The position numbers and the translations under genes are program-made. Below are positions 4,147-21,931 of a stretch of DNA of 64,000 bases, one piece after another. This stretch comes from an uncultured virus (IMG/VR IMGVR_UViG_3300035428_000406) (taxonomy: Duplodnaviria; Heunggongvirae; Uroviricota; Caudoviricetes): IMG/VR virus record IMGVR_UViG_3300035428_000406; one strand, written 5' to 3'. The notes under the pieces were generated by a model. The model worked only from the letters and a program-made list of their open reading frames with translations, ran no database searches and had not been told where the DNA came from. Each line of letters starts with the position of its first letter. The stretch's first letter is position 1.

Positions 4147-7100
4147 ATGGCAACTGACAATAAACGAAAATTATACGATGCCCTCTCGCAAGACTTCGAT
4201 ATGGGCAGTTATGAGCAGTTCTGCGCAGACCTCAACGACGAGGGCAAGCGTCGCAAGCTCTACGACGCGACCAGTCAAGACTACGACCTCGGCACATGGG
4301 ATAGCTTCTCACAGCAGTTAGGATATGGACAGGCCGCTGCACCCGTTCCTGAAAGACCTGCCGCTCCTGTCGATACTCCTGTGTCGTCCACATCGCCAAA
4401 GCCCACTGAATATTTCAAACTACGCCGTGGCGGCAAGGACTTCACGGTATCAACCGACGAGGTAAATGCTGCCGGCGGTCTGTCGTCGTGGGCACAGGCA
4501 CACCCCGGTGCTCCTATCCGTGTCTATATGCAGGGTAAAAAGGAAGACGGGACCGACTTCGACGGTCATGTTGACCTATCCGTAGCCCACGATCGAAGAA
4601 AACGACGTGGCTACAAGTACACAACCACAAGCAATGCTATTGAGGATAAGCCATGGCAACCGACCGAACAGGAGAAAATTGCCATGGCTCATCAGCTCCA
4701 CCAAATGCAAGCGCAGAGCGACGCCATGTTTGCCGAGAATCGCGAACGTATGGAGAATGTCTCCGAGTATTATCGTGGCAACCGTGGCCTCGGCTTCCAT
4801 ACTGTCGAGGGAAAGCCGGTATTCAATCCGCAGACCGGCCAAATGGAGAAGACCTACCTCACGCCTATGGGCGACCGCACAACAAACAAAGCGGCAGCAG
4901 ATATGTCTACGTTCAATTTCCGTCAGGCTATGGCAGCCGCCGATATGTCGGTGGGCGCACAGATACGTCGAGCCGAGGCCGAACTTGCCGAACTGCGCAA
5001 ACAGTTCGAGGATAGTAAGAGCCGTGTTCATGATGAATGGACCGAGGACTACGAAAAAAACGACGCGCCTCTCGCCGCCGTACTTGCTGCCAATACCTAT
5101 GTGCCTCGTCAGACTTCCGACAAGGAAAACTCCGCTCTGCGTGTCGCTATCCGCCAAAGGGAAGAACAGCTCAAGAACTTGTACGAGGAACGAGACAGGC
5201 AGATTGGCAAGGATGTCGGCTTTTGGCGTGGCTTCGGTCGTATCGTCAGCGACAGCCGCACATGGGACTTCGGTACAGGCGACCTGTTGGACGCTATGAC
5301 CATGCTTAATGCCGACCAATATTCAGCCCCCAACGCTACCGAGGGCGAGAAACGAGCCGGTCAAGAAATGCTCAAGGCGGCTTACGATGCACAACAGACT
5401 GAACAAATGTTTGGCGAAAACGCCTCATTCTGGAACAGGGCCGGTGTTATGACCGGCTATATGCCGTCGTTCATGCTCGACTTTGCGCTTACAGGCGGCG
5501 GTTTTGAAGTTGTCAATGTTGCAGGTAAGGCCGCGGCTCGTGGCTCTGCAAAACTGATAGGCGAAGCAGCCATTAAGGAAATGACCGAGTTAGGTGTCAA
5601 AGCCTATGCCAAGAGATACGGTCTCCGTGGCGTTGGCCGTATGGCAGAGAATTGGACTATCAAGGCACTCGGTACGACCGCAGACGAGTTATTGATTCGC
5701 GCTCCGCTCATGACCAACACCATTCAGGCAGGTAAGACCGCCGCAGACATCATCGACCGCAAACTCGGTGATGTGCAAGTTGACGCTAACGGCAATTATA
5801 ATTTTGCCAATGACAAGACTTGGGGCAGTGCTGTTTGGCAGGGGGAGGCCAACGCTATCATAGAGAACTACTCGGAAATGTTCGGCACACACCTTGATGT
5901 GGTTGGACCGGCACTCGTAAAGGCACTTTCAAAGACTTACGGCGGAAAGCGTATCAGCGGTATGCTTGCACGCGCCAATGCGTCGAGCTACGGTCAAATC
6001 CTTGCTACTACTCGCAAGCATTTTGAACGGCTCGGCGTGTCTGACTACTTCGGCGAGGTTGGCGAAGAATACTATGGCCAGCTGTGGCGAACCATGCTCA
6101 ATCTTGAAGACGCATATACCAATGAGCCAGTCTACGACGCAGAGGGCAATCAGGTACTCGACGCAGAGGGCAACCCTGTCTACAAGCGTAAGAACCTATT
6201 GTTTACAGGCCAGTTCCACGGCGATATTTGGGGCGGCATGGCTCTATCTATGGGCTTAATGGGTGCAGGTAAGTACACAATTTCAGGTATAGCCTATGGC
6301 AGCATGAAACATCAGGTCAATGTGGCCGATCGTGTTGCCGCTGAAATATTCACGCCTGAACGCTGGGAGCCTATCCGCGAAATTATTGACAGCACTACCA
6401 ATGAAGACATCGGTACACTTGCCGAAAGCATGGTAAACGACCCCAACCTCTCCGACGAGGAACGTGCGGCCGTCATGGAATATATGGAACGCAGCCTTAA
6501 TCTCCGTGGCCTCAACCTCGGTGCTATGGCGCAGAGCCGTGGTGCAGCTGATGAGGAAGGTGTGGAAATACCTACACCTGTCGAAATGGATATGGACAAC
6601 GAATTCAGTCAGTCCTACATCGACGGCTACGAGGCTTCCAGCCCGCAGGAAATGGCGGACGCACAGAATATGTACGAGTATCAGCGTCAGCGAGCCGAGA
6701 GCATGTTTGAGCCGAGTGTGCTTGAATCGCTCGACAGCAACCCAGTTGCTACTCTTATGGATATGTCGCAGACCGGCCTCTACTCGCAGGAAGAGATAGA
6801 CGCAGCCCGTGACTACATCAATGCCAAGACCGTGCGCGACGGCATTTTGCAACGTGTCAATGACAACATCGACGAGCAAATCGCCCAAAGCGACGCGATG
6901 ATAAATGCCCGTGTCAATCCGGCAAGCGGCATGATACAACCTGCCGTTATGGGTCTCGACGACCGTCAGGTGTACGTTGTAGGCGGCTCGCTCTCTATCA
7001 ATCCCGACGGAACAATAGACCGCGAGGCTTCCGATGAGAGCGTAGTCGTCCGCGACGCTGTGACTGGAGAGGTGGAATTTGTCGATCCAAGGTCTATTGT

Positions 7101-10100
7101 GTCGGCCGGCGAAGCTATCGACCCCGAAATGGAAAAGGCACTTGCCGTCGATAATATTCGCCAACAGGCCGCACAGGCCGCAGCCGACGCTCTGAACGGC
7201 ACACTCGCTTTCAATCCGGGCGACGTTGTGCAAATCAATGACGGCGGCGGTGTCGTTCAGGTTACTGTCCTCGGTCCTATTGTCGATGAAGAAAGCGGTA
7301 TGCCTATCGAGGGTCAGGTAATGGTACAGTTTCCCAACGGACAGCAGACCGCATTTGCCAAAGAGCAACTCCAAGCCTTTGCAGACGCGGCCAATCTGGA
7401 ACGTATAAACGAATTTGAGCAGCAACGTGGAGCCGAGCGCGCACAGCAACAGGCTACTGAAGCCGAAGCCATGCGGCCACAGTTTGCCCTCAATGATGAA
7501 TTTACCATACTCAACGACAACGGGACACCTATTCGCGGCTCGATCACTGCCGAACTCGACGAGGACGGTACTGTGGAAATACACACGGAGGAACCTCTCA
7601 ACGGCAACCATGTGAACCGCCTTACACCTGCCGAACTTGAAGAAATGTTCGACACGTATAACGGTCTACCTGTCTCCCTGCCTGTTCCCGAAATAGAGAA
7701 AACCGTTCCCAATCTTGACGAAATGCCCGAAAATGCAGGGCAAAATGGAGAAATTTCCCCGGAAACCGTTCCCAATCCCGATGTGACAGCAGAGGCAGAA
7801 CCCCAGCAGTCTGCGCTGTCTCGTGTTCCTGTCGATGAACAGGGACAGCGTAACTATCTCGACACTGATGCAGATACAGCGTATGACGCTTTTGTGGAGC
7901 TGTCGGAAGGCGACGAGGCTTTGGCCGCAGAAGTCATTGCCGACTATGTAGAAGAAGCCGAGGACGATTTCAAGGCAGCAGAAAAAGCACTCAACAAGAC
8001 AAAAGAGGGCAAGCCGGAGAAGCGGAAGAAAGGCGACCCCGCGCCGACCGATGAGGAACGAGTGGCCATAAAGAAAGCCGCCAAACAAGCACTCGCAGAG
8101 GCACAGGCTATCCGTGACCGTGCGAAAGCCAACCTCGACCATTGGAAAAAGATTGCCGGCACAAAGCAACGCCGAGAGGCCGACCGCCGAAGCGCAGAGG
8201 ACGCAGAGGCTCGTCGCCGTGCAGCGGAACGTGCAGCAGAGGAAGCACGATTAAAGGCAGAACGAGAAGAAGCGGAGCGTATCGAGCGCGAAGCACTCAA
8301 CGGCGTGCCTGATTGGAATGTCGATACACCCGCCGACGCTCGTGCTCGTGGCTACCGTCGTAATGGACCGCAGAAAGTTGACCGTCCCGAAATCATCGAC
8401 AATCATGCTATCGGCAATTCGATTGAGGTCAAGTTTGGCGACGACGTTATGCCAACAGGCAACATCGCCATTATTGAAGCCTCACAGTTGCAACCGAGCC
8501 ACCGCTACGGTCAACGTAATCCCGCACACTTCCTTGACGAAGCACAACCCAAAGAACGCAAGGATGCAGCAAGCCGTTTTGCAGCAGCCAAAATTGCCGA
8601 AACCATGCGCCCCGAAGAAATCACATCGAGCGTCACGGCCTTTACCGGCGCACCGAGCGTCAACAGCCGTGGCGAGGTTATTCAGGGTAACAACCGAGGC
8701 GAAGCACTCCGCCTCATGTACGAGGGTTATGCCGATTCTGCCGCCAAGTATAAGCAGTATCTTATCGACCATGCCGCCGAGTTTGGGCTTACTCCTGAAG
8801 CTATCGAGGCTTTTGAGCAGCCTGTACTCGTCAATATGCTCGACGTGTCGGACGAAAACGCCATTACCCTCGGCCAGTATGTTGCACAGGACACCGAGAG
8901 CGGCGGGATTGAGCGTATAAAGCCCAAGAACGCAGTGCAGAAAATGGGTAACAAAATTCGCAGCTTTGCAAACCTGTTGCTCCGCTCTGCCGATGATGAG
9001 GCCACATTTGCCCAGCTTGTGGACTCTAACGGCGTTGAGGTGTTGAAATGGATGAATCAACAGGGGTTCATCACAAATACCCAATATGCAAGTGCTTTCG
9101 ATAGCAGAGGCAACCTCACAGCCGAAGCCGCCAACGACCTCAAGGGTATCATGTATCAGTCTATCTTCACAGGTGGAAGCACTCGCCTTGAAGAAATGTT
9201 CAACAAAATGCCGGCAAAAGCGCAACGAGCTATCCTCGCAACGGCCTTCCGCGACTATGACAGTGCTTTCGCTGACCGCATGATCAACGAGATACAGCAG
9301 TCTATTATCGCTTTTGACGCACTCATGGGTTATGAGGCGTTCCGTGAAGCGACTAATGCCGAAGCTACACAGAACGCAGTCGAGGCTTGGAAGTTGCAGT
9401 TCGCCTTTGACGATGTTTCAGGAGAGCCTTATCTTCCCTCGGAAACTTTCAGTAACTTTGCACTCACACTTGCGGCCATGTATAAAGGCCACACCCAAAG
9501 ACATATTCAGTCGGTTTTCAACATGATGTATGACATCGTGCAAGGTACTGAACAGGATAATCTCTTTGAGGCCGCAGACAAGACCCCGAAACCTCTTGCC
9601 GAGGCCATACATCGTGTGCTTAATCTCGAATATCAACCCATAGTAAAACCAACAACTAACAATGGAACAAATGGAAGTGCTGTATTGGACGTCGATAGTG
9701 AAGATGGCCAAGATGGGCGAACAGGAAGCAGTGGAAACACTGACGGCGCAGAACAAAATCCGCAATCAGGAGAACCGACCGACAGTGGAACAGGAGCTGC
9801 AGGCGATAGCAGACAAGGGGGCGAAGTAGCCAACGAGGAAGGAGTCTTTACTCCTGAAGAAATCGAAGCTCTGTCTCACGCCACCTTTACCAACACCGAA
9901 TCGGGACAGACAATCAAACTGACCGGCCACGTTATCATGCCCGACGGCAGAGCCGCCTTCAAGGGCAATATGAATAATGAGCATGGTAGCCAAGGCCGCT
10001 TCATGCACAATCTTATCCGCAAGCTACTCGACAGTCCGTCATGGACGACCGACGCCGTAATGCCGTCGGCAGCACAAGAAAGCGAGCAACACGACTTTGA

Positions 10101-13100
10101 CGACCTCGACAACTCTGCGTTGGCCGAGCGTATTGATGTGTCCGATGATGATTGGACTGAGGGAGAGGACCAGACACCCACTTACAAGCGCACAATCACT
10201 ATCGACGGCAAGCACCAAGTCATTCAGATCGACGAACCCGACGGCAATGGCTTCTACATTGGCTCACGCTTCGAGTATCAGGGTGAACACTTCGGTAGCC
10301 TTACCGAAGTGATAGACCACATCGACAAGCAGGCTCAACTCGCCGCTAACATCGCCGAAGCTGAAGCCGAGGTTAACACCGACCCAACACCGGGACAGAA
10401 GGAAGCGGGCAACTATAAGAAAGGCCATGTGCAGGTTGGCACATTCGACGTGACAATCGAAAATCCAAGAGGTTCAATTCGTCGCGGTACTGACGCTAAC
10501 GGAAAAGAGTGGCAGACCGAAATGAAGAACACCTACGGCTATATTCGTGGCACTGAAAGTGTTGACGGCGACCACATCGACGTATTCCTTGCTGAAAATA
10601 TTGATGAATGGAATGGCCGCAGAGTATTTATTGTCGACCAGTACAACGAGGACGGCACATTCGATGAGCATAAAGTCATGCTCGGCTTTAATGACAAGGC
10701 CGACGCTGTAATCGCATACCAATCCAACTATGAAGACGGCTGGATGCGCAAGCGTCGTATTGTTGTCAATTCCGTAATCATCGAAGACTTCGAGAAATGG
10801 ATTGAGAGCAGCCACCGCAAGACAAAACCATTTGCCGACTACACCATATCGCAGCGAGGAGAGACCGAAGAAGTCGGTGGCAGCAGCAACGAAGATAATC
10901 AAGACAGTAACGGCTTGATAAAACTCCGCGAACTTCTGACATCAAAAGGCATGAACTCGGACGGTGTTGCCAATGTTGAAACAGTTGTAAAAACTTTGGC
11001 AAAACAACTTTCGGGAAATCTCCGGCTTCGCTCAATACTTGACAGCAATGGTTATGATTGGCAAAAGGAGGAGGCTGCAATGAATCTTGTCGGTGACTTA
11101 ATGAACGACCGCATGTTGAGTGGAGCAGAAGAAACTATCGACATACTGTTCAAAAGCGAGCCTTACAATGAAGCAATCAGAACGGCAATTGCTCATGAGG
11201 CACTTAACATTCTGATTGATCAGGATAACATCGCAATCGGGAACAGTACAACTCAAAGCAATGGTTATACTATCTCTGCCAAACCGTACACCAACAAGCA
11301 GCAGAAAACGCTCGACACCTATCTTGTTACCTTTGAGCGCGAGTTGAGCAAGGAAGAAAAGAAAGCAATGTCGGCCACAGCTCGCTCCGATTTTAAGGGT
11401 TGGTATGATAAGGAGACCGGCGGTTTTATGCTCCGAAGCCGTGAGGACGCCGAGGCTTTCGCCCAAAAGTATAACATCACAGATGAATCTCCGCTGTCGG
11501 TTGATGATATGCGCCCGGCTGAAGCAGCTGTGGAACAAACATCAACGGAACAGGCCAAAGAAGATGTTGCCGAAGACGACAACGAAAAGCCGGTCAATCC
11601 GAGTGGCAACCGTATTGTGACTGATGAACAGTATGCCGACTATCTCGCCCGATTCAAGAAGAAGCTCGGTGGACAGCTCAATATGGGTATCGACCCCGAA
11701 ATTTTACAACTCGGCGCGATGATGGCTGTGTACCACATCGAAAAAGGCACACGCAAATTTGCCGCCTATGTCAAGGCTATGATACACGACCTTGGCGAAA
11801 TGTCGGATAAAGTGCCGTACCAGTATCTCAAAGGCTTCTACAAGAACGCCCACAACATGCTTGAATTTGACGCGCCCGATATTGCCAAGGAAATGGACAG
11901 TGACGAGGTCGTCAACGCTACCGATGTCGCCGCAATAGTCAGTGGCCATATCGACGCTATTGCCACAGCCGAAATGGTAACCGCCGAGCAACAGGCAGAA
12001 GCAGAACGTTCCGAGGCAGAACGCAAACTCAAAGAGGAACGCAACAAGCGTAGAACCAACGCAGACGGTTCTACCACCACGACTATCAATGAGGGTGGTA
12101 CGGAGATAGAAATAACCGAGGGTGACTTTATACCCGGAGTGCTCCCAACTCTCGATACCGAGAAGAAACCCTCCGTCAAAAAGAAACCCGGCAAAGCAAA
12201 ACCGAAGCCAACGACCGACGACGGTTTGTTTGATACCGTCGAGGACGACGCAACGGTAGCACCAACTATCGCCGTACCAGAACAGCGACCTGCTGCAGAC
12301 CTCATCGGCGATTCTGCCGCATATCAGGAGCGAGAGGCACAGACCGTTGAATTGGTAGAGGAAATCGGCGGCGTGATTGAGAACCGTGTCGACATGCTTC
12401 AGCTCGATTCTGAAAGCGTGAAACCTCTTACCATGACCGATGTTAAGAAAATGGCCGCGAAGTATCCCGCCCTCAAAGATATTAGCGACACCGACCTTCA
12501 GGAACTTGTCGAGCTTGCGATGACACAGCTTACGCGCTCCGAAGCCCTTGTTAACATCGACAGCACAGCCGAGCAGCAGCGGTCAGCCTACGACCGCATT
12601 GTCAACCTGTATCAGATACAGCCGAGTCTCAACGCACGCGACAGTGAACGCCTCATCAAGCAGCAGTATTCCACACCTACACCTTTCGGCTTCGTAATGG
12701 GCCAATTCGTCCGCGCCGGAGGAAAGGCCGTTGGCAGTATGCTGGAGCCAAGCGCAGGTAACGGCGCACTCACAATTACCGTACACCCGTCTGTCGTCCA
12801 TGTGAACGATATAGACGACGCACGGCTTGCCAATCTTCGCAAACTCGGCTACGGACAAGTGACAGCACAGGACGCACTGTTGCCTTTCAATGGCGATAAG
12901 GTGGACGTTGTTATGACGAACCCACCGTTTGGCACTGTAACTGAAAAGGTATACGACGGCATTTTCCGTGTTTCGAGCCTTGAGGGCCAAATGGCAATCA
13001 ACGCTCTGGAGCAGATGAAAGACGACGGTCGAGCCGCAATCGTGATAGGTGGAAACACAAGTTATCGCACAAATGGCTCGATGAACCCCAAAGATGCCGC

Positions 13101-16100
13101 ATTTTTTGGCTATCTTTACAGCCACTATAACGTCACAGATGTTATCAACATAAGCGGCAAGGCTCTATACTCTCGCAATGGTACAGGCTACGATGTGCGC
13201 ATGATACTGATTGACGGACGCAAGACCGGCGAATTTCAGCGTGTCTATCCACCCGTCAAGGCCAAAGCTCGCGCAGAGCAGGTAACAACATTTGACGAAC
13301 TTTATAAACGTGTTCAAGATGATATACAGCAAATTCAGCAAATGGGGCGTCAGTCTGCCGATGTGCAGCGAGACCCTGAAACAGCCGCTGACGGAACAGC
13401 GGGTGCGCCTGTTCGTTCAGGAAACAATCGTCCGAACGCAGGAGCAGGGCAACGACCCGGTACAACAAGCAATGCAGTCCGAGATACACCCCGGACCGAT
13501 AGCGGACAGTCTACACCCACAAATGACAGCCAACGACCTGTTGGAGTGGATAATGCAGACGCAGGAAATGCAGGAAGCACTGATAATGTTCCGCAACCAA
13601 AGCCCCAACAGCCCCGAAGCGTCGGAAGTGGAAGCACACAAGATGGAACAGGAAGAAGTGGAAGCGATGGACGTGGAGCAACTTCTTCTCGACCTGACCG
13701 TGGCGCAGAGCGACTGGAGGTAAAACCCGACCTCACTACCGAGAAAGTACCATATCCCAACCAAAGTGACAACGGTTTTACCCTCATGTCGGTAGTGCCG
13801 GCGGCACAGGCAACGGTACTACAAAAGAGCCTCGGCGAAATCGGAGACGTAGACCAATACCTCGTAGATGAGCTTGGCTATTCGAGTAAAGATGAACTTT
13901 ACAAATATCTTGCAGCCGAGCAGATAGACTCCGTTGCACTTGCCATACACCAAATGAATAAGGGCAACGCCTTTATCATCGGCGATATGACAGGTGTAGG
14001 AAAAGGCCGTCAGGGTGCGGCCCTCATACGTTATGCAGTTAAACAGGGCAAAGTGCCTATTTACTTCACGCAGAAACCTACACTCTATACTGATAACTAC
14101 CGAGACCTTGCAGACATCGGCAGCAGTGATCTCCGTCCGTTCATTATAGCGTCCAACGCCAAAGACGCTAATATCGTTGACGCAGACGGCAATATCGTTC
14201 ACAAGCTCCCGTCGAAGAAAGAGCAAGAACGTGTGTATAACTACATCATGGAGCATGGCACACTTCCTGATGAGTACGATTATGTACTTACCACATACGA
14301 CCAAATCAAGAATGGTACAGCCGACTATGCACAGAATGAAGACGGCACATGGGCAATCGGAGCGCGAAAGCTGCCAAAGAACAGCAAGGGCTACACAACT
14401 GCCGACCATAACGGTCAGACGCGGCGCGATGCACTCGCAAGACTCGCAGAGGGCAATATCGCCATACTTGACGAGAGCCATACCGTTGGCGGCGATAGTG
14501 GCTGTGGCCGCTATATGCAGATGTTGACATCACAGGCCGGCGGTGTCACATTCCTGTCAGCTACATTTGCGAAGCGCGCGGACAACATGCCTATATATGC
14601 ACAACGTACTGCAATCGCAGAAGCCGGTGTTAAAGCCTCTGAACTGATTGAGGCTATTATGAAAGGTGGTGTTACCTTGCAGGAAATCATGTCGAAGCAG
14701 TTGGTTGAATCCGGCCAAATGATAAGACGTGAGCGCAGCTTCGAGGGCGTGACTATTGATTGGTTAAGTGTAGAGGAAGAAACAAACCGCCGTCAGCGTG
14801 AGCAGTTTAACGAAGTCGCCAACATCTTCAACGCCATTCGTAACTTCCAAGACGACTACATCACACCGATAATCGACGCCAAAAACGAAGCAGCCGCAGA
14901 GTTTGGTGCAACCGTAGGCCATACACAAGGCACAAAGGACTTGGGCGTTAAGAATGTTCCATTTGCCTCGAAGATGTATAACCTCGTCAATCAGTTGCTC
15001 TTTGCCCTGAAAGTGGACGCTGTTGCTGACCGTGTAGTAGAAAACCTGCGTAATGGCTACAAGCCTGTTATCAGCTTCACAAATACAATGGAAGGCTTCT
15101 TGTCATCAGCTCCGAAAGGTGTTGCTATGGATGATGTGCCTAACTTCTCGCTCACTCTCATGCGAGCACTCGACGGAGTAATGCGTTTTACCGAAAAGGA
15201 CGCAGACGAAAATAGCGAGGGTGGTACTATATCTTTGAGCGACCTTTCGGCAGAGGGGCAAAATGCCTACAATGCAATTCGTGAAAAGATAATGAACCTT
15301 AGTGCCGACCTGCCAATATCTCCTATGGACGCAATCCGCATGAAGATAGAGGAAGCCGGTTACAGCGTCGCCGAGATAACAGGACGCACTATGCAGCTCA
15401 ACCGAACCGAGGACGGCCGATATATCGTTGAGGCTCGAAAAGACCGAGATAAGAAAGCCGCCATGCGTGACTTCAACTCAGGCAAGCTCGATGTGTTGAT
15501 GATTAACAAATCAGGCTCTACGGGCATATCGCTTCATGCGTCAAGCAAGTTTGAGGACCGTCGTCCCCGTGTCATGGTGTTTGCTCAATTCCAGAGCGAC
15601 ATTAACGACGAGGTGCAAATGCGAGGCCGTATCGACCGCAGCGGACAGGTTACCCGTGGCCGCTACGAATACATCATGTCGACAATCCCGGCAGAGCAAC
15701 GTATTCAAATGATGTTCAAGGCCAAGTTAAAGAGCCTCGACGCAAATACAACATCGTCGCAAAAGTCGAAATTCAATGAAATGGAGATTGTTGACTATCT
15801 AAACAAGTACGGCGATGAAGTTGTGTGGGAATACATGAAAGAACACCCCGAACTTGCAGAACGTCTCGGCGATCCGTTGAATATGCTTCAGGAGAAAAAC
15901 GATGAAGACGGGCCTCGCACGTCTGACAAAGAGGACACATCGAAGAAGTCGGGCTGCGCAGGTAAAATTTCGCGCTATCTTGCTTTCCTTTCCGTTGAGG
16001 AACAGGACGAGATATTCCGTGAAATCACTGAAGCCTATCGTGTGAAAATCCAGCTTCTTGACGACGCCGGAGAAAATGACCTTGAAATCACTACGATGCC

Positions 16101-19100
16101 ACTACGCGCCGATACCAAGCGCAAGCAGATTTGGCACGACGGAGAAAACCCCGGCAGCGGCAACGCTTTCGCCGACAACACCTATGTCGAAGAAGTCGAG
16201 GTTGACGTACTGAAAAAGCCGATGAAGCGCAGCGAAATAGCGGAAGCAACTCGCAAATTCATGGGAGAACACTATGCCGAATTAAACGGCAGCGTGGATT
16301 GGCAGCACTATATTCGCACCAAAGGCGATGAGATTGAACTATTCTTCCAGGCAAAGGCAAACGAAGCCGTCGGTAAATTGAGAGAAGCCGGAGAAGCCCG
16401 TATCGCCAAAGCAAGAGAAAAAGCGGTTAGTTCTGCAACGAAAGCAAGAGGGCGAGGCGAAAACAACTTTACTGACGAGGAAATTCAGTCTCTCGCTGAT
16501 ACCGTTGCCAATGAGGAACGCCTAAAGGAAGAACAGAAACAGCGTAAACGCCACGAAGAAATCATGGCTGTAAAAAATCGTATTCTGTCGTTACTCAACA
16601 GTCTTCGTGCGGAAAAAATCTATGTCGTGCCGCAAGACCTTAAACAAGGTACTGCGGAAATGTTCTCGCAGACATTTGGTACATTCGTTGGTTTCAAATT
16701 CAACAAGAGCTATACGCTCGGCTCTTCGACCGCAATATTCGCGACACTCGACGGCCGTCGTAAAGTTGAACTGGCGTTGAGCGATTCTGCAATCAACACT
16801 ATAATGGGCGCGACGGAAATTGCCTACCGCTATTCTCCGAAAGAGATTAACGCAATCACTATGGAGAATTGGGATAGTAATGTACCTACGCAGACACGTC
16901 AGAAGCGGTACATCATTACCGGCAATCTTCTTCAGGCTCTCGTTGATACCGAGAAAGGCGATAAGACCAGAGGCAACCTCATTAATTATTCCACTATTGA
17001 CGGAGAAACACGTCAGGGTATCCTTATGGGCGAGAATTTCAAACTGACCGACCTGCGCAACAGCGCACCGTTGAGCAGTCGCCTCGCCCAGATAAGAGAG
17101 GGCAAAGCCATAGTCAGCGAGAATGGTGACGTGCAGATCGAGCGTGAAATGTACGATTGGCGACATCGTGGCGAATATGAATTGCGCGTACCGAAGTCAA
17201 AGCAACGCGGTGGCATTTACACAATGCACCCCGACCTGTTGAAACTCGTAGACGGTCACAACTTCATAACCAAAGGCAACAGCATGGTTGCGTATGTAGC
17301 CGAGGCTGATATTGCCAAAGTGGTGGATATGTTGAGCCGTGCGCCGTTCAACCTTACAGTGCTGCAAGAGTCGAAGCTATCGGACGTTTCAGCAGATGAA
17401 GCAGAGGACGATGTCCTGTGCCGCCCTGTGACCGATAAGGCCACCCTTGAACACCTGAATAGCGAACCCACAATCAAGGTCTACCGAGCCATGCAGATTA
17501 TTGACGGAGGTCTCCGTCCGCCAATGTCGGCAAGAGTAAGTGGGAAACTGCGCGAGGCTACTGAAATCGGTGTATGGGAAGAAGCAGAGGAACGCCCGGA
17601 ACTCGCAGACGATAAAGGCAAATTCAAACTCAACAAGGGTAATGGCAAGACTATCGACGCCGCATATAATCCCTATATCCATACGTCACGGTCGCCTATA
17701 AACGACCAGTTCAGTAGCGCATGGAGCCGCCCCGAACTTGTAACGGTCGAGGTTGAAGTTCCGGCGAGTGAGTTGACAAGCGAATACCATGCAGAGAAAG
17801 CTAAAGACAGCGTTGGAGAAAAGGAATGGAAGAGCGGTCCCGTAGGTCGCGCACTGGCCAAGGTCGGTCAGGTGCGTAAAGTCATACTTAGCCGCTGGAG
17901 CAGAGTTGTCCGTGTCGTTCCTATCGAAGAAGTAGCCGACGCTTTTGCACAGCGACTGAACGCCCACGGTATAGAAGTGCCGTTTAACACAGTGCCCCCG
18001 GCTCTGCGCGACGCACTTGTTGAACGTGGCGTGAAGATTGGCAAGCCTGAAAACAGCAATGCCGGTAAGGCTTCAATGCCAGCTTTCGAGCAGTGGATAC
18101 TCGAACAAGAGCGTCAGCGAATGGGCGACGGCTACGGTGCTTACAGCGACGCAGAGGTATCGTATGCCAACGACCCTATATCAAAGGTAATGGGCAAAAA
18201 CCGTTTCAGCAAGAAGCGTCAGGCCGAGTTTGCCGCTCGTGAGCGTCAGCGCATGGCGACCCGTATTCAGGAGCTTGCAGAGCGTATGCACCTCAACAAC
18301 GTGGAGATTCTCACGGACGCTTCACAGCTTGAAGGCAAGAGAGCCAAAGCAAAGGGTTTCTACAACAAGCGCACAGGCAAAATCACAATCGTAATCCCGA
18401 ACAACATCAGCACTATCGATGCAGAGCAGACACTTCTCCATGAAGCCGTGGCACATTACGGCTTGCGTCAGCTTTTCGGAGAGCAGTTTAATACGTTCCT
18501 CGATAACGTGTATGATTCTGCGGACGAGAGCATACGTCGCAAGATAGCAGAAATGGCCGCTAAAAACGGCTGGGACTTTCGCACTGCAACCGAGGAATAT
18601 CTTGCAGGACTGGCCGAAGATACTAATTTCAGCGAGGCGCAGAACTATTCGGGTTGGTGGTCGAAAATTAAACGTCTGTTCCTTTCTATGCTTGAAAGCA
18701 TAGGTTTCGAGGGTTTCCGCGACAAGACGGGTGTTGTCTTGACCGACAACGAACTTCGCTATATCCTATGGCGTAGCTATGAAAATCTTGCCGAGCCGGG
18801 CCGTTACCGCAGCATACTCGGAGAGGCCGCAGACGTAGCCAAGCAGAGCGAGTTGAAAGTCGGCAACTATGCAGAGCAAGGTATCGAAGCAGATTATGCC
18901 GCAGAGGGCGACATGTATCGTTCCGGCGACTTTTCGCCCCGTGACCGTGTGTTTGCTCGCTATGCCTACGAGAGCATGGTGAGAAGTGGCAGCTATCAAT
19001 TCAAAGAGGCCGTTCAAGATAGTATGTTAGGGCTTAAGAAACTCTATCAGGCTATTCTCGGCAGGAATACCCGAATTGAAGATGTCCCCGGCTTTGAGAA

Positions 19101-21861
19101 CGCCTACCTGTTTGAAAACCGCATGAGCAGTATGAATGCCGGAGAACAACACGAATACTTCCAACGCTATATGCAGCCGCTTCTGCAAGAGATTGGCCAC
19201 ATAGCCGGAGCAAACAAGCGCAAACGCAGGGAACTGACCGACTACATCATGGCCAAGCATGGTCTTGAGCGCAACGAATATATGCGCAACGAGGCGGCCG
19301 CCAACGGCGAGGAAACCGACCGCGACTTTGCCGGACTTATCGGGCTGACAGGTGAAGCCGATTGGCAGAGCGCAGAAGATACTGCACGGCAGTGGGTTGA
19401 CGACTACGAAGCCATGTATGACACAGCACCACTGTGGGAAGCTATCAACAAAGCGACAAAGGCCACACTCGAAAAAGTGTATATTTCAGGTATCATCAGT
19501 AAGGAGACATACGAGAAGATACTTGGAATGTATAACTACTATGTTCCTCTGCGCGGTTGGAATGAGAAAACGAGCGACGAGGTGTATGGCTACCTGACAA
19601 GTAAAGACGGCCCACTCGGTGGCAGTATCATGAAAAAGGCAGAAGGCCGTGAGAGTATGGCCGACGATCCTATTGCCACAATCGGCATGATGGCCGACGA
19701 CGCAATCCGTCAGGGCAACCGCAACCTTATGAAACAGCGTTTTCTCAATTTCATACTCAACCACCCCAGTGACGCTGTTAGTGTGCATGACCTGTGGCTC
19801 GAATACAACGACGTTACCGGCGAGTGGGTTCCTGTCTTTGCAGACGTTGAAGAAACCGATACCGCCGACGTGGTAGAACAAAAGGTTAAGGACTTCGAGG
19901 AGCGCATGGAAGCATTACGCAACGCCGAGCCTGACAAGTATAAGAGAGGCCGCGAGGCACAGCACATACCGTACAAGGTTGTGCGTGGCAATCTCCGCGA
20001 ACATCAGATACTCATCAAGCGCAATGGCCGTACTTCCGTCGTTACCATAAACGGTAATCCGAGAGCGGCACAAGCAATCAACGGCCTTACCAATCCCGAC
20101 GTAGATCAGAATGGTATTGTCGGCAATATGTTGAAAGCCGGTACTTGGGTTAATCGTCAACTCTCGGCATTTTACACCACTCGTAACCCTGACTTTGTTG
20201 TAGGCAACTTCTTCCGCGATATGTTGTACTCCAACTGTATGACATGGGTAAAGGAAAGTCCGCGATACGCTCGACGCTTCCACAAGAATTTTGCTCGTGT
20301 AAATCCTATCGTAATGCGCCGTCTTCTTGGCAAGTGGGAGAAAGGCACACTTGATATGAGCAATCATATTGAGAACCTGTTCTATCAATTTATGAAGAAT
20401 GGTGGCGAGACCGGCTATACTAACGTCCGCGACATCGAGGGACACAAGAGAGCTGTCGCAGCCGAACTGAAGAAACAAAGTAGCACAGGCCGCCGAGTGT
20501 GGACCGCACTCGGTATGCAGTTAGACCTGCTCAACCGTGCCGCGGAGAACTGCGCCCGCTTCGCCGCTTTTGTTACCTCTCGTGACTTTGGCCGCAACAT
20601 CGACCGAGCAATCTATGACGCAAAGGAAATAAGTGTCAACTTCAACAAGAAAGGCAGTGGCGGCAAAATGGTTAACGCCACCGGCCAAACCAAACTCGGC
20701 AAGACGGGTGCATATCTTAGCGGTGGTGGCCGTCTCCTGTATGTGTTCTGGAATGCCGGTATTCAGGGTATGACCAACTTCGGCCGTCAGGCAAAATTGC
20801 ACCCGGCAAAATTCTCCGTGGGAGCTACGGCCTTGTTCACACTCGGCTATGTTATTCCCATGCTTGCCCAAATGGTAGGCGGTGGAGACGGTGACGATGA
20901 CGACAAGAACGCATATTACAACCTGCCTGAATACGTTCGTCGTTCAAACATCTGCTTCTATGCCGGCGACCAATGGATAACGATCCCTCTACCTATTGAG
21001 TATCGTGCCATGTACGGTATGGGAGAGCTTGCGCACGGTGTAATAAGCGGCAACGAGCGTTACAGCAATTCCGAACTTGCCCGCCAAATGACATCGCAAG
21101 TATCGCAGATTTTCCCGATAGATATGCTTGAAGGTGGAGGCGGTGTTTCTCCATTCATACCGAGTGCGGCCAAACCGTTTACCGAAGCCTACATCATGAA
21201 TAAGGGTTGGACAGGCTTACCCGTCTACAAGGATACTCCATACAACAAGAATATGCCTGAATGGACGAAAGCCTATGCAAGTGCCGACAAACATCTTGTG
21301 GACTTTGCCAAGTGGCTAAACGAGACATCAGGCGGCGACGACTTCAAGAAAGGCTCAATTGACATTAACCCTGCCAAGATTGAGTATCTACTCAACGGTA
21401 CTTTCGGCGGTCTGTTTACTTTCCCTAACAAGGTGAAGAAGTCCGCAGAGACGGCCTTTGGCGATCGAGATTTTGAGTGGCGAAATATGCCGATTGCCAA
21501 CCGCCTTATCAAGTCAGGCGATGAGCGTACTGCAAACCGCAAGCTCCAAAACGAGTATTTCAAGTACAAGAAAGAGTATGAAGAAATCGGGGAGCGTATG
21601 CGCAAGTATGAGAACGCCGACGAACAGGGCATAATGGGCTATGCCGAGAAGATAGACTTTTTAGAAAATTCTCCTGAATACGCTCGTTGGGAAATTTTCG
21701 ATGAGTTTAAGGCAGACCTCGACTCGTACAGAGAAGACCTCGCAATCGAGACTGACGTGGAAGAACGCAAGCGTATTGAGGCGGAAATGTACGCTGTAAT
21801 GCGTGAACTTATTAACGCACTCCACAACCCGGAAGCATACCGTAATAGCGAACAGGAATAG
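4147..21861 (+). CDS. Giant polyvalent DarB-like protein (5904 aa)
   Basis: ParB-like GAPSVNSRGEVIQGNNR (~8650); pyrophosphatase-like YGYIRGTESVDGDHIDVF (~10540); MTase EPSAGNG (12745) and NPPF (12919); Strawberry-notch-like SF2 helicase GDMTGVGKGRQ (13981), DESH (14470), QMRGRIDRSGQ; HEAVAH peptidase motif (18439); LPD38-like C-terminus. Confidence 0.85.
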   Translation: MATDNKRKLYDALSQDFDMGSYEQFCADLNDEGKRRKLYDATSQDYDLGTWDSFSQQLGYGQAAAPVPERPAAPVDTPVSSTSPKPTEYFKLRRGGKDFTVSTDEVNAAGGLSSWAQAHPGAPIRVYMQGKKEDGTDFDGHVDLSVAHDRRKRRGYKYTTTSNAIEDKPWQPTEQEKIAMAHQLHQMQAQSDAMFAENRERMENVSEYYRGNRGLGFHTVEGKPVFNPQTGQMEKTYLTPMGDRTTNKAAADMSTFNFRQAMAAADMSVGAQIRRAEAELAELRKQFEDSKSRVHDEWTEDYEKNDAPLAAVLAANTYVPRQTSDKENSALRVAIRQREEQLKNLYEERDRQIGKDVGFWRGFGRIVSDSRTWDFGTGDLLDAMTMLNADQYSAPNATEGEKRAGQEMLKAAYDAQQTEQMFGENASFWNRAGVMTGYMPSFMLDFALTGGGFEVVNVAGKAAARGSAKLIGEAAIKEMTELGVKAYAKRYGLRGVGRMAENWTIKALGTTADELLIRAPLMTNTIQAGKTAADIIDRKLGDVQVDANGNYNFANDKTWGSAVWQGEANAIIENYSEMFGTHLDVVGPALVKALSKTYGGKRISGMLARANASSYGQILATTRKHFERLGVSDYFGEVGEEYYGQLWRTMLNLEDAYTNEPVYDAEGNQVLDAEGNPVYKRKNLLFTGQFHGDIWGGMALSMGLMGAGKYTISGIAYGSMKHQVNVADRVAAEIFTPERWEPIREIIDSTTNEDIGTLAESMVNDPNLSDEERAAVMEYMERSLNLRGLNLGAMAQSRGAADEEGVEIPTPVEMDMDNEFSQSYIDGYEASSPQEMADAQNMYEYQRQRAESMFEPSVLESLDSNPVATLMDMSQTGLYSQEEIDAARDYINAKTVRDGILQRVNDNIDEQIAQSDAMINARVNPASGMIQPAVMGLDDRQVYVVGGSLSINPDGTIDREASDESVVVRDAVTGEVEFVDPRSIVSAGEAIDPEMEKALAVDNIRQQAAQAAADALNGTLAFNPGDVVQINDGGGVVQVTVLGPIVDEESGMPIEGQVMVQFPNGQQTAFAKEQLQAFADAANLERINEFEQQRGAERAQQQATEAEAMRPQFALNDEFTILNDNGTPIRGSITAELDEDGTVEIHTEEPLNGNHVNRLTPAELEEMFDTYNGLPVSLPVPEIEKTVPNLDEMPENAGQNGEISPETVPNPDVTAEAEPQQSALSRVPVDEQGQRNYLDTDADTAYDAFVELSEGDEALAAEVIADYVEEAEDDFKAAEKALNKTKEGKPEKRKKGDPAPTDEERVAIKKAAKQALAEAQAIRDRAKANLDHWKKIAGTKQRREADRRSAEDAEARRRAAERAAEEARLKAEREEAERIEREALNGVPDWNVDTPADARARGYRRNGPQKVDRPEIIDNHAIGNSIEVKFGDDVMPTGNIAIIEASQLQPSHRYGQRNPAHFLDEAQPKERKDAASRFAAAKIAETMRPEEITSSVTAFTGAPSVNSRGEVIQGNNRGEALRLMYEGYADSAAKYKQYLIDHAAEFGLTPEAIEAFEQPVLVNMLDVSDENAITLGQYVAQDTESGGIERIKPKNAVQKMGNKIRSFANLLLRSADDEATFAQLVDSNGVEVLKWMNQQGFITNTQYASAFDSRGNLTAEAANDLKGIMYQSIFTGGSTRLEEMFNKMPAKAQRAILATAFRDYDSAFADRMINEIQQSIIAFDALMGYEAFREATNAEATQNAVEAWKLQFAFDDVSGEPYLPSETFSNFALTLAAMYKGHTQRHIQSVFNMMYDIVQGTEQDNLFEAADKTPKPLAEAIHRVLNLEYQPIVKPTTNNGTNGSAVLDVDSEDGQDGRTGSSGNTDGAEQNPQSGEPTDSGTGAAGDSRQGGEVANEEGVFTPEEIEALSHATFTNTESGQTIKLTGHVIMPDGRAAFKGNMNNEHGSQGRFMHNLIRKLLDSPSWTTDAVMPSAAQESEQHDFDDLDNSALAERIDVSDDDWTEGEDQTPTYKRTITIDGKHQVIQIDEPDGNGFYIGSRFEYQGEHFGSLTEVIDHIDKQAQLAANIAEAEAEVNTDPTPGQKEAGNYKKGHVQVGTFDVTIENPRGSIRRGTDANGKEWQTEMKNTYGYIRGTESVDGDHIDVFLAENIDEWNGRRVFIVDQYNEDGTFDEHKVMLGFNDKADAVIAYQSNYEDGWMRKRRIVVNSVIIEDFEKWIESSHRKTKPFADYTISQRGETEEVGGSSNEDNQDSNGLIKLRELLTSKGMNSDGVANVETVVKTLAKQLSGNLRLRSILDSNGYDWQKEEAAMNLVGDLMNDRMLSGAEETIDILFKSEPYNEAIRTAIAHEALNILIDQDNIAIGNSTTQSNGYTISAKPYTNKQQKTLDTYLVTFERELSKEEKKAMSATARSDFKGWYDKETGGFMLRSREDAEAFAQKYNITDESPLSVDDMRPAEAAVEQTSTEQAKEDVAEDDNEKPVNPSGNRIVTDEQYADYLARFKKKLGGQLNMGIDPEILQLGAMMAVYHIEKGTRKFAAYVKAMIHDLGEMSDKVPYQYLKGFYKNAHNMLEFDAPDIAKEMDSDEVVNATDVAAIVSGHIDAIATAEMVTAEQQAEAERSEAERKLKEERNKRRTNADGSTTTTINEGGTEIEITEGDFIPGVLPTLDTEKKPSVKKKPGKAKPKPTTDDGLFDTVEDDATVAPTIAVPEQRPAADLIGDSAAYQEREAQTVELVEEIGGVIENRVDMLQLDSESVKPLTMTDVKKMAAKYPALKDISDTDLQELVELAMTQLTRSEALVNIDSTAEQQRSAYDRIVNLYQIQPSLNARDSERLIKQQYSTPTPFGFVMGQFVRAGGKAVGSMLEPSAGNGALTITVHPSVVHVNDIDDARLANLRKLGYGQVTAQDALLPFNGDKVDVVMTNPPFGTVTEKVYDGIFRVSSLEGQMAINALEQMKDDGRAAIVIGGNTSYRTNGSMNPKDAAFFGYLYSHYNVTDVINISGKALYSRNGTGYDVRMILIDGRKTGEFQRVYPPVKAKARAEQVTTFDELYKRVQDDIQQIQQMGRQSADVQRDPETAADGTAGAPVRSGNNRPNAGAGQRPGTTSNAVRDTPRTDSGQSTPTNDSQRPVGVDNADAGNAGSTDNVPQPKPQQPRSVGSGSTQDGTGRSGSDGRGATSSRPDRGAERLEVKPDLTTEKVPYPNQSDNGFTLMSVVPAAQATVLQKSLGEIGDVDQYLVDELGYSSKDELYKYLAAEQIDSVALAIHQMNKGNAFIIGDMTGVGKGRQGAALIRYAVKQGKVPIYFTQKPTLYTDNYRDLADIGSSDLRPFIIASNAKDANIVDADGNIVHKLPSKKEQERVYNYIMEHGTLPDEYDYVLTTYDQIKNGTADYAQNEDGTWAIGARKLPKNSKGYTTADHNGQTRRDALARLAEGNIAILDESHTVGGDSGCGRYMQMLTSQAGGVTFLSATFAKRADNMPIYAQRTAIAEAGVKASELIEAIMKGGVTLQEIMSKQLVESGQMIRRERSFEGVTIDWLSVEEETNRRQREQFNEVANIFNAIRNFQDDYITPIIDAKNEAAAEFGATVGHTQGTKDLGVKNVPFASKMYNLVNQLLFALKVDAVADRVVENLRNGYKPVISFTNTMEGFLSSAPKGVAMDDVPNFSLTLMRALDGVMRFTEKDADENSEGGTISLSDLSAEGQNAYNAIREKIMNLSADLPISPMDAIRMKIEEAGYSVAEITGRTMQLNRTEDGRYIVEARKDRDKKAAMRDFNSGKLDVLMINKSGSTGISLHASSKFEDRRPRVMVFAQFQSDINDEVQMRGRIDRSGQVTRGRYEYIMSTIPAEQRIQMMFKAKLKSLDANTTSSQKSKFNEMEIVDYLNKYGDEVVWEYMKEHPELAERLGDPLNMLQEKNDEDGPRTSDKEDTSKKSGCAGKISRYLAFLSVEEQDEIFREITEAYRVKIQLLDDAGENDLEITTMPLRADTKRKQIWHDGENPGSGNAFADNTYVEEVEVDVLKKPMKRSEIAEATRKFMGEHYAELNGSVDWQHYIRTKGDEIELFFQAKANEAVGKLREAGEARIAKAREKAVSSATKARGRGENNFTDEEIQSLADTVANEERLKEEQKQRKRHEEIMAVKNRILSLLNSLRAEKIYVVPQDLKQGTAEMFSQTFGTFVGFKFNKSYTLGSSTAIFATLDGRRKVELALSDSAINTIMGATEIAYRYSPKEINAITMENWDSNVPTQTRQKRYIITGNLLQALVDTEKGDKTRGNLINYSTIDGETRQGILMGENFKLTDLRNSAPLSSRLAQIREGKAIVSENGDVQIEREMYDWRHRGEYELRVPKSKQRGGIYTMHPDLLKLVDGHNFITKGNSMVAYVAEADIAKVVDMLSRAPFNLTVLQESKLSDVSADEAEDDVLCRPVTDKATLEHLNSEPTIKVYRAMQIIDGGLRPPMSARVSGKLREATEIGVWEEAEERPELADDKGKFKLNKGNGKTIDAAYNPYIHTSRSPINDQFSSAWSRPELVTVEVEVPASELTSEYHAEKAKDSVGEKEWKSGPVGRALAKVGQVRKVILSRWSRVVRVVPIEEVADAFAQRLNAHGIEVPFNTVPPALRDALVERGVKIGKPENSNAGKASMPAFEQWILEQERQRMGDGYGAYSDAEVSYANDPISKVMGKNRFSKKRQAEFAARERQRMATRIQELAERMHLNNVEILTDASQLEGKRAKAKGFYNKRTGKITIVIPNNISTIDAEQTLLHEAVAHYGLRQLFGEQFNTFLDNVYDSADESIRRKIAEMAAKNGWDFRTATEEYLAGLAEDTNFSEAQNYSGWWSKIKRLFLSMLESIGFEGFRDKTGVVLTDNELRYILWRSYENLAEPGRYRSILGEAADVAKQSELKVGNYAEQGIEADYAAEGDMYRSGDFSPRDRVFARYAYESMVRSGSYQFKEAVQDSMLGLKKLYQAILGRNTRIEDVPGFENAYLFENRMSSMNAGEQHEYFQRYMQPLLQEIGHIAGANKRKRRELTDYIMAKHGLERNEYMRNEAAANGEETDRDFAGLIGLTGEADWQSAEDTARQWVDDYEAMYDTAPLWEAINKATKATLEKVYISGIISKETYEKILGMYNYYVPLRGWNEKTSDEVYGYLTSKDGPLGGSIMKKAEGRESMADDPIATIGMMADDAIRQGNRNLMKQRFLNFILNHPSDAVSVHDLWLEYNDVTGEWVPVFADVEETDTADVVEQKVKDFEERMEALRNAEPDKYKRGREAQHIPYKVVRGNLREHQILIKRNGRTSVVTINGNPRAAQAINGLTNPDVDQNGIVGNMLKAGTWVNRQLSAFYTTRNPDFVVGNFFRDMLYSNCMTWVKESPRYARRFHKNFARVNPIVMRRLLGKWEKGTLDMSNHIENLFYQFMKNGGETGYTNVRDIEGHKRAVAAELKKQSSTGRRVWTALGMQLDLLNRAAENCARFAAFVTSRDFGRNIDRAIYDAKEISVNFNKKGSGGKMVNATGQTKLGKTGAYLSGGGRLLYVFWNAGIQGMTNFGRQAKLHPAKFSVGATALFTLGYVIPMLAQMVGGGDGDDDDKNAYYNLPEYVRRSNICFYAGDQWITIPLPIEYRAMYGMGELAHGVISGNERYSNSELARQMTSQVSQIFPIDMLEGGGGVSPFIPSAAKPFTEAYIMNKGWTGLPVYKDTPYNKNMPEWTKAYASADKHLVDFAKWLNETSGGDDFKKGSIDINPAKIEYLLNGTFGGLFTFPNKVKKSAETAFGDRDFEWRNMPIANRLIKSGDERTANRKLQNEYFKYKKEYEEIGERMRKYENADEQGIMGYAEKIDFLENSPEYARWEIFDEFKADLDSYREDLAIETDVEERKRIEAEMYAVMRELINALHNPEAYRNSEQE
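9662..9829 (+). CDS. Candidate overprinted 55-aa protein in +1 frame of giant gene
   Basis: A-rich start context CCAACAACTAACAATG; MEQMEVLYWTSIVKMAKMGEQEAVETLTAQNKIRNQENRPTVEQELQAIADKGAK; main frame is a G/S/D linker over the same span. Confidence 0.55.
   Translation: MEQMEVLYWTSIVKMAKMGEQEAVETLTAQNKIRNQENRPTVEQELQAIADKGAK
13319..13723 (+). CDS. Candidate overprinted 134-aa acidic helical protein in +1 frame of giant gene
   Basis: ORF track 13292-13723, ATG at 13319; amphipathic sequence (NDLLEWIMQTQEMQEALIMF...VEAMDVEQLLLDL); main frame is a G/S/R/D linker between MTase and helicase. Confidence 0.6.
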   Translation: MIYSKFSKWGVSLPMCSETLKQPLTEQRVRLFVQETIVRTQEQGNDPVQQAMQSEIHPGPIADSLHPQMTANDLLEWIMQTQEMQEALIMFRNQSPNSPEASEVEAHKMEQEEVEAMDVEQLLLDLTVAQSDWR

Positions 21862-21897
21862 TTAAACAATGGGTAATGCTTATGTGGTGTATATTTG
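21859..21897 (+). promoter_or_regulatory. Putative late promoter for portal
   Basis: TAGTTAA, 24 nt, TATATTTG. Confidence 0.7.
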
Positions 21898-21931
21898 CGC
21901 CCGTAAGCATTACCCTATAATCCAAAATACA

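Follow-up and report, generated by a model that had tools for sequence, protein, structure and literature searches.

The window analysed here comprises 64,000 nucleotides of an uncultured virus (IMG/VR record IMGVR_UViG_3300035428_000406), a temperate Bacteroidales phage whose largest gene encodes a giant polyvalent protein of 5904 amino acids. Between its methyltransferase and helicase domains this host gene holds a complete same-strand open reading frame (ORF), shifted to +1 and equipped with a start and a stop of its own (ATG at 13319, TAA at 13721-13723), the arrangement that characterises an embedded gene. The initial annotation had described a 405-nucleotide ORF beginning at an ATG in A/T-rich context, a linker-like main frame across it and a product with an acidic C-terminus, and the ORF is present as described: 64% of the 25 nucleotides before the ATG are A or T, the main frame is rich in G, R, S, D, Q, A, P and T, and the product has an isoelectric point (pI) of 4.43 and a net charge of -13. 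Its inference that an unannotated overprinted gene lies between the two domains is strongly supported by the conservation and the selection observed among relatives. As judged from these sequence comparisons, the 134-amino-acid ORF is very probably a real protein-coding gene (Table 1).

In the window alone, the stop-free +1 run extends from 13286 to 13723 (145 codons, with TTG at 13292 and GTG at 13310 as alternative starts) and ranks third in length among the +1 runs of the giant gene; two longer ones lie elsewhere, and the minus-strand frames are likewise long at this site. The T content of the stretch amounts to 13.8%. When the main-frame synonymous codons were redrawn, the +1 frame stayed open in 43% of 5000 trials, and redrawing the whole gene (n = 300) produced a +1 run of 145 or more codons somewhere in 77% of the cases. 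The ORF is lifted above chance by the comparison with relatives.

Relatives of the methyltransferase-spacer-helicase stretch formed a close set of eight viral and four genome loci with 75-91% host identity. All 12 loci carry the same ATG, lack a +1 stop and end at the same position. In the most distant of them the +1 peptide is 69-75% identical to that of the window, versus 52-59% for the main-frame spacer, and across the 13 sequences only the frames +0 and +1 are free of stops throughout, the antisense frames carrying zero to three. The indels of locus L008 are multiples of three, and its +1 frame stays without stops. More widely, 20 database proteins are close to the nested product (46-94% identity, 120-144 amino acids, no Pfam match), and a profile search yielded 27 representative clusters, of which 21 reached E<=1e-10. 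Scanning with the family alignment identified 32 viral loci, seven from contigs of the 12-locus set and 25 with 30-38% identity in the nested protein; in all 32 the small ORF is intact and sits in +1 of a giant frame that is open over the whole 3.5-6.4 kb locus. Likewise, 12 of 14 metagenome loci show the nested arrangement, the exceptions being a broken contig (coverage 2.5) and a standalone gene. The host frame has no stop across the nested gene in any nested locus, and an empty-site variant was found in none of the 12 close, 32 viral and 14 metagenome loci. The initial annotation had pointed to +1 stops and the start codon in homologs as a check; in every nested relative the +1 frame is stop-free and the ATG is kept.

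The substitution pattern likewise follows the +1 frame. Nucleotide diversity at host codon positions 1, 2 and 3 is 0.287, 0.152 and 0.107 inside the ORF versus 0.069, 0.046 and 0.433 downstream, and in 30-codon windows the periodicity switches at 13321 and returns at ~13660. The most variable site is thus the third position of the +1 codons and the least variable one their second position, which is the signature of coding in +1. We determined ratios of nonsynonymous to synonymous change (dN/dS) by a home-made pairwise counting scheme in which changes are split by their effect in each frame, with bootstrap confidence intervals (CIs). Across the nested ORF the ratio was 0.20 in the +1 frame (dNN/dNS; CI 0.14-0.28) and 1.3 in the host frame (dNN/dSN; CI 0.93-2.0). 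For the flanks and a control +1 ORF of 125 codons (14150-14527), the +1 ratios were 0.71-1.55, with CIs that include 1, and the host-frame ratios 0.03-0.07. In a second clade, represented by 18 distinct loci, the periodicity flips alike, with a +1 ratio of 0.43 (0.30-0.63) and a host ratio of 0.95. The dN/dS check proposed together with the original claim therefore came out in favour of the +1 frame (0.20 versus ~1.3). Taken together, purifying selection acts on the 134-amino-acid +1 product, and the host-frame amino-acid sequence over the nested gene evolves as though it were unimportant.

Constraint between the two frames is asymmetric, since a fixed main-frame protein hardly constrains the +1 frame and a fixed nested protein closes the host frame. 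With the nested protein held constant and its synonymous codons redrawn from phage usage, the host frame contained on average 7.3 stops and was open in 0 of 5000 redraws. T occupies 3.7% of the nested third positions versus 31.9% in a standalone homologue, which has 13 stops in the frame corresponding to the host frame; at host position 1, T is present in 5 of 133 codons inside the nested stretch versus 12% elsewhere in the gene. The giant frame stays open because the nested gene avoids T at its wobble position, which is host position 1, and all stop codons start with T. The composition of the spacer follows from the nested codons, and the G/S/R/D/Q-rich interdomain "linker" is thus a by-product reading of the resident small gene. 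The earlier suggestion that the linker reflects the shifted reading of an ordinary protein is borne out by the codon redraws and the scarcity of T at the wobble position.

Table 1. Features of the nested gene, its host gene and related loci. Positions are those of the window unless a locus is named.
Feature	Position	Strand	Remarks
Nested +1-frame gene, 134-aa acidic alpha/beta protein (P0001)	13319..13723 (stop included)	+	Comparative evidence and AlphaFold2 model
Host-frame "linker", 133 codons	13321..13720	+	Sequence-unconstrained read-through of the nested gene
Probable initiation region of the nested gene (candidate)	13294..13318	+	A+T-rich, unstructured, A at -3, -12 and -13
+1-frame TAA stop	13283..13285	+	12 codons 5' of the nested ATG; +1 stop at the same place in 12/12 loci
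Host gene, 5904-aa phage polyvalent protein	4147..21861	+	Largest gene of the window; ORF listing and Pfam
Methyltransferase domain of the host protein	12640..13317	+	EPSAGNG and TNPPFG motifs; ends directly 5' of the nested start codon
Strawberry-notch/SNF2-type helicase of the host protein	13906..16092	+	AAA_34 and Helicase_C_4; 3' of the nested gene
Second nested +1 ORF, 55 aa, MEQMEVLYWTSIVKMAK...	9662..9829	+	In another G/S/T/D-rich spacer of the host gene
BS-TP4 nested +1 ORF	L013 6836-7195 (PQ571277)		Conserved start is the second Met; 115 aa from there
Standalone homologue of the nested protein	L051 2989-3423		38% identical; ordinary base composition; same start Met
AbiD/Abi_2 abortive-infection gene	L051 1533-2417		Pfam Abi_2 8.5e-45; PADLOC AbiD 6e-54
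Small acidic ORF between AbiD and the standalone homologue	L051 2608-2973		

The sequence in front of the nested ATG is a probable initiation region. Its A+T content falls into the top 6.4% of the 25-nucleotide windows of the gene, and the minimum free energy of the 61 nucleotides around the ATG, -4.1 kcal/mol compared to a gene mean of -12.4 (standard deviation 4.1), belongs to the least-structured 1.6%. Of 19 distinct contexts, 17 have an A at -3; the set includes three from the clade of phage BS-TP4 that were cut out of register. Met1 is invariant in all 21 aligned family members. The ATG is built on the host Asp codon GAT, which is the minor one (32.5% in the gene) and yet is used in 15/15 distinct window-type contexts. 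For Bacteroidetes, which do not rely on Shine-Dalgarno sequences, PMC6847099 names A-3 and low structure as initiation determinants. The nested protein would be made by internal initiation at the conserved ATG in this unstructured A/T-rich patch, a type of signal, with A-3, that Bacteroidetes ribosomes would use in place of a Shine-Dalgarno sequence. Translation may proceed from the late giant mRNA, and possibly from an internal transcript as well.

Contigs assembled from RNA libraries (four runs of two studies) cover the nested ORF without any difference and at their highest depth. Their left ends all fall within 13143-13162, and none of the four runs covers 12800-13142, a weak hint at the 5' end of an internal transcript near 13143-13162; one run has an adapter-like loose end at this very place. 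The Bacteroides-type promoter motif TAnnTTTG has no exact match near 13100-13160, and in the window as a whole it is not enriched (40 found versus 34 expected).

AlphaFold2 (21 sequences) predicts a compact alpha/beta domain with a predicted local distance difference test (pLDDT) score of 87.6 and a predicted template modelling (pTM) score of 0.84; the first predicted strand begins at residue 2. The family is acidic throughout, with a pI of 4.05-4.71 and a net charge of -12 to -27 in 24/24 members, the standalone one included. The nested proteins had no family match in Pfam, PHROGs and NCBIfam (E<=0.01) or in PADLOC. A search of the ESM Atlas returned nothing, the best hit of a profile search against the PDB had an E value of 0.4, and Foldseek gave no match at E<=0.001 in the PDB and BFVD. 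With VIA-align wide the window model reached a Z score of 2.9 at best and the BS-TP4 model one of 4.0, neither above noise.

The standalone homologue lies on a contig, L051, that looks like bacterial DNA and has a weak SusD-like match; it is located 570 nucleotides downstream of an AbiD gene. Further standalone copies were found neither in plasmids nor in isolated phages, and the single hits among 401 sampled genomes of the phylum and among 401 of the order are both the centre genome itself. In a midpoint-rooted family tree, in which many branches are weak, the standalone homologue falls within the nested diversity, and its grouping with the wider clade of the window is supported by 92/93. Distances of the nested protein and of the flanks co-vary (Spearman rho 0.80, 78 pairs), the nested protein diverging ~2.2 times faster than the flanks; in both clades of the family, nested arrangement and host gene diverge together. 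The simplest reading is one old nesting event followed by vertical co-descent, with a single escape later on; a gene that existed before may also have been inserted.

A programmed frameshift out of the giant ORF, which would give a truncated polyvalent protein ending in the 134-amino-acid domain, is improbable. It would be in line with the position of the ORF within a translated gene on the same strand, and two records, P0029 and P0059, do cross from the host frame into +1; however, these are single records on contigs of ~1 kb or unknown length, for which assembly indels are the simpler explanation. The +1 stop 12 codons before the ATG, present in the window and in 12/12 loci, leaves a very short stretch for slippage, in which no slippery motif was noticed by eye (no pattern search was run). 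Moreover, Met1 is invariant, and the ATG is kept via a minor Asp codon. The standalone homologue starts at the same Met, directly before the first predicted strand, and this identical start together with the upstream stop argues against a frameshift product.

We give similarly little credence to a selfish inserted element, akin to the out-of-frame HNH genes in phage methylase genes and tolerated as the host frame reads through it. There is precedent for a stop-free host frame over an out-of-frame gene in a methylase gene (PMC11855218), the site adjoins a methyltransferase, a standalone copy exists elsewhere, and DarB of phage P1 has no insert. However, the nested proteins match neither HNH nor another nuclease family (Pfam, PHROG, NCBIfam; E<=0.01), and the fold searches list no nuclease above noise, an argument that is weak alone. 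In addition, the same site is occupied in every relative examined, with no presence/absence polymorphism (12/12 close, 32/32 viral and 12/14 metagenome loci), and the co-variation of nested and flank distances fits vertical co-descent rather than homing.

That there is no gene at all, the +1 frame being open only through T-poor linker DNA and kept in the relatives by shared ancestry, is very improbable. The low T content, the outcome of the main-frame redraws, the longer +1 runs elsewhere in the gene and the long minus-strand frames at this site would all agree with such a chance frame. Yet T-poverty leaves unexplained the +1-specific substitution pattern (second position below first below third), which starts and ends near the ORF borders, as well as the low +1 ratio next to a host ratio of ~1.3, the confident fold and the standalone homologue. 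Moreover, an ordinary host-frame pattern is seen in the gene's other long runs of alternative frames, and the antisense frames gain stops in relatives. An RNA structure or regulatory element that constrains host-frame synonymous sites without a second protein can practically be dismissed: host third positions are conserved (0.107 versus ~0.43 in the flanks) and the ORF body folds more stably than the ORF start, but such an element would yield neither a three-base periodicity matching the +1 codons over 400 nucleotides, nor conservative +1 replacements and a stop-free +1 frame through the multiple-of-three indels of L008, nor a protein family with a standalone member of different nucleotide composition.

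Several points weigh against our reading of 13319-13723 as a functional nested gene. Within a single sequence the open +1 frame is expected by chance (P = 0.43). The loci compared are related by descent and represent approximately three deep clades with several sub-lineages each, so that their counts overstate independence, and the dN/dS estimator is akin to published overlapping-gene methods rather than a tree-based likelihood test. Translation of the nested protein is a prediction; from the RNA-library contigs that cover the ORF, strand, level and ends cannot be read, and they may derive from DNA carry-over. Two of the five AlphaFold2 models reached a pLDDT of only 59.1 and 57.5. As to function, nothing found bears directly on it: in the libraries searched, neither a family nor a fold nor a motif matched. 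The absence of a methyltransferase or helicase beside the standalone homologue weakens the idea of a partner of the adjacent domain.

A nested gene is likewise present in a further clade. Bacteroides phage BS-TP4, a cultured temperate phage that was present in 31.3% of 930 viromes of the human gut (PMC12694917), shows 40% identity along the main-frame query stretch and has a +1 ORF in the same methyltransferase-helicase spacer. Its record (PQ571277) annotates the giant coding sequence alone, as hypothetical, in line with the earlier expectation that annotation pipelines would miss the nested gene. Gene callers forbid long same-strand overlaps, and consequently the nested family with its 27 representative clusters is essentially missing from phage annotation. 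Relatives of the BS-TP4 ORF reach down to 61% identity, and in eight distinct sequences of the clade the periodicity flips (0.167, 0.101 and 0.032 versus 0.29-0.35 at position 3 of the flanks); the evidence for this clade is the periodicity, the dN/dS analysis covering the window clade and clade 2. AlphaFold2 models the BS-TP4 type (seven sequences) with a pLDDT of 79.8 and a pTM of 0.76. In this model and in that of the window, two N-terminal strands are followed by a long helix, a helix pair, a strand and terminal helices, and both families share short motifs (P-x-LTE and a final SDW). Homology of the two nested families is not claimed, the E values obtained with BLASTP and hhalign (0.15, 0.024 and 0.3) not being significant. 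The BS-TP4 clade thus has an analogous nested gene at the same junction.

We scanned the periodicity of the whole giant gene in the window and three genome copies. Besides 10936-11155, the only other flip was found at 9592-9800, which overlaps the second nested ORF listed in Table 1. From a conserved Met its +1 peptide is recognisable in the window and in 12 loci at 58-85% main-frame identity, and the main-frame spacer over it is not conserved in the same manner; a like ORF is present in BS-TP4. The C-terminal end of the peptide varies, four rows having no stop inside the stretch compared. Diversity at the three host positions is 0.357, 0.28 and 0.256 versus 0.51-0.57 at position 3 of the flanks, and pNN/pNS is 0.56 in the +1 frame (CI 0.41-0.77) and 1.05 in the host frame. 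The pattern of nucleotide change marks 9662-9829 as another gene nested in +1 of the giant gene. In the segment 10936-11155, all three codon positions are highly variable (0.5-0.7) among the four copies; this segment is hypervariable or poorly alignable, and its signature is unlike that of the nested genes. The ORFs at 4586-5299, 8255-8920 and 14150-14527 and that on the minus strand at 6283-7665 were rejected as genes, as they show the ordinary host-frame pattern.

The host protein matches the Pfam families ddrB-ParB (3.5e-24), InPase (1.6e-50), AAA_34 (2.6e-17), Helicase_C_4 (5.3e-24) and LPD38 (1.7e-44). The positions given for the helicase correspond to residues 503-579 and 989-1231 in the translation beginning at 12400. 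The methyltransferase segment matched no Pfam methyltransferase family at E<=0.01; it carries EPSAGNG and TNPPFG, which we take to be the S-adenosylmethionine-binding and catalytic motifs of N6-adenine methyltransferases, and tblastn matches it to a gene labelled "N-6 DNA Methylase" in Acinetobacter phage records. Across this domain the host-frame dN/dS is 0.07. The portal gene (21869-23908; phrog_156, 2.7e-109) begins 8 nucleotides past the host-gene stop. A DarB-like dyad has been described as an adenine-methyltransferase fused C-terminally to a helicase of superfamily 2 (SNF2/Sno-type), and ddrB-ParB, InPase and LPD38 are classed as phage-type polyvalent domains (PMC5512222). By its domains and its linkage to the portal gene, the host gene encodes a polyvalent protein of the phage type that includes a DarB-like methylase-helicase dyad, and this giant antirestriction protein is probably packaged and injected.

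Further gene calls in the window comprise an integrase (1-1476), a large terminase, a capsid-like protein and replication genes. A reverse transcriptase (40174-41847; phrog_1423, 7.5e-57) lies downstream of a gene for a 2841-amino-acid protein (31242-39767), which suggests a diversity-generating retroelement; such elements are reported for phage BS-TP4 (PMC12694917).

Embedded same-strand genes are well known in phages, as exemplified by lambda Rz1 inside Rz (+1 frame) and by phiX174 B in A and E in D. The nested gene resembles them in being a complete small gene in another frame of a larger one, with both products expected from one piece of DNA, a kind that annotation pipelines tend to miss. 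Unlike in these cases, the host is a 5904-amino-acid multi-enzyme virion protein and the overlap lies in an interdomain spacer, the host frame is without amino-acid constraint (dN/dS ~1.3) and is kept open by T-avoidance, the predicted product is a soluble acidic alpha/beta protein and not a lipoprotein or lysis protein, and one host gene holds two nested genes. In the usual picture of overprinting the younger, overprinted frame is disordered and weakly constrained. Here, the situation is reversed, as the giant host frame is weakly constrained and the small nested gene is folded and constrained. The locus shares with overprinted viral genes the use of two frames, asymmetric selection and one product for which the searched libraries gave no relative in fold or sequence (PMC8227390, PMC3494269, PMC4316641).

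The ShiLan domain, an HNH endonuclease encoded out of frame in DNA methylase genes of actinophages (Arsenault, Gosselin & Gogarten 2025, PMC11855218), is comparable in that an out-of-frame gene lies in a phage methylase-bearing gene with a stop-free host frame, whose read-through there is thought to form a harmless loop (PMC11855218). In contrast to this homing endonuclease with its presence/absence polymorphism, located within the methylase (PMC11855218), the nested gene matches no nuclease family, has a fixed site between domains and co-diverges with its host gene.

As in the Dar system of phage P1, where darB adjoins prt, a DarB-like methyltransferase-helicase is combined with a DdrB-type ParB domain beside the portal gene (PMC5512222). 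P1 Ulx, a head protein of 146 amino acids and 17 kDa that is encoded next to darB, is listed as aiding DarB localisation (PMC9024508, PMC12810830). Unlike the nested gene, ulx is a separate gene downstream of darB, and alignment of the family profile with Ulx by hhalign gave a probability of 0.7% (E 0.079). A nested counterpart within P1 darB was sought and rejected: darB has no low-complexity spacer at this place, the sole +1 ORF there is basic and of low complexity, and the host frame is ordinary protein. A functional analogy to Ulx would be a guess.

T7 Ocr and ArdA are acidic DNA mimics. Both are listed as binders of restriction enzymes (PMC5512222). The nested family resembles them in being small, strongly acidic and in an antirestriction context; its predicted fold is a compact alpha/beta domain, and neither Ocr nor ArdA is among the matches of Foldseek against PDB and BFVD (E<=0.001), VIA-align (best Z 2.9) or the PDB profile search (best E 0.4). 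Our literature searches turned up no account of genes nested in the spacers of polyvalent proteins, nor of any nested in Bacteroides phages. The words "overlapping" and "linker" are absent from the paper on polyvalent proteins (PMC5512222), and the paper on BS-TP4 is silent on both polyvalent proteins and gene overlap (PMC12694917). Out-of-frame embedded phage genes are already known (Rz1, phiX174, hidden HNH genes); the novelty is nested genes in polyvalent-protein spacers.

With regard to function, the nested protein is small, acidic and predicted to be folded, its gene is locked into an antirestriction gene, and a relative lies beside a host defence gene. It may be an anti-defence or accessory factor that acts with, or alongside, the injected antirestriction module, a role that we consider plausible, if somewhat short of an even chance. 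A helper in assembly or packaging of the giant protein, by analogy with P1 Ulx, is rather unlikely, and an altogether different function is a possibility to be entertained with some doubt. The roles suggested in the initial annotation, an inhibitor or chaperone of the neighbouring enzyme or an acidic DNA mimic, may likewise apply. Tentatively, an escape of the standalone copy to a bacterial site beside AbiD would point to direct involvement in the conflict between phage and defence. The host gene being a DarB-like antirestriction weapon of temperate phages, the co-encoded protein is a candidate new anti-defence or assembly factor. Changing the ATG to ACG turns the host codon GAT into GAC, a silent exchange, and the nested gene can hence be removed without touching the giant protein.

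More generally, what looks like a disordered linker can be the secondary reading of a gene under constraint, which alters the reading of low-complexity spacers in giant proteins of phages and plasmids; flipped codon periodicity combined with T-avoidance at host position 1 provides a diagnostic for such nested genes. Tentatively, the linkers of giant polyvalent proteins might as a rule be dual-coding, by read-through of a folded gene that carries no T at the wobble position, and the nested proteins might serve the flanking enzyme domains as partners that are stoichiometrically co-expressed and perhaps injected together with them, or as anti-defence effectors in their own right. This tentative picture would include at least two nested genes (13319-13723 and 9662-9829) in the giant gene and an arrangement old enough to be common to BS-TP4.

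Some individual records deviate from the general arrangement. P0042, a distant family member of 264 amino acids, has a protein-like N-terminal extension of 127 amino acids rich in W, Y and C, and could represent a fusion or another mode of embedding; no viral or metagenome contig with its DNA context was found. The host frame of L049 is broken; as with P0029 and P0059, which pass from the host frame to +1, this probably reflects assembly indels on short or low-coverage contigs, and the three may also be natural frameshift variants. In the metagenome locus L057 the giant frame ends 436 nucleotides before the end of the locus, and in L063, a BS-TP4-like viral contig, it contains eight stops; in both, the giant gene may be broken or shortened.

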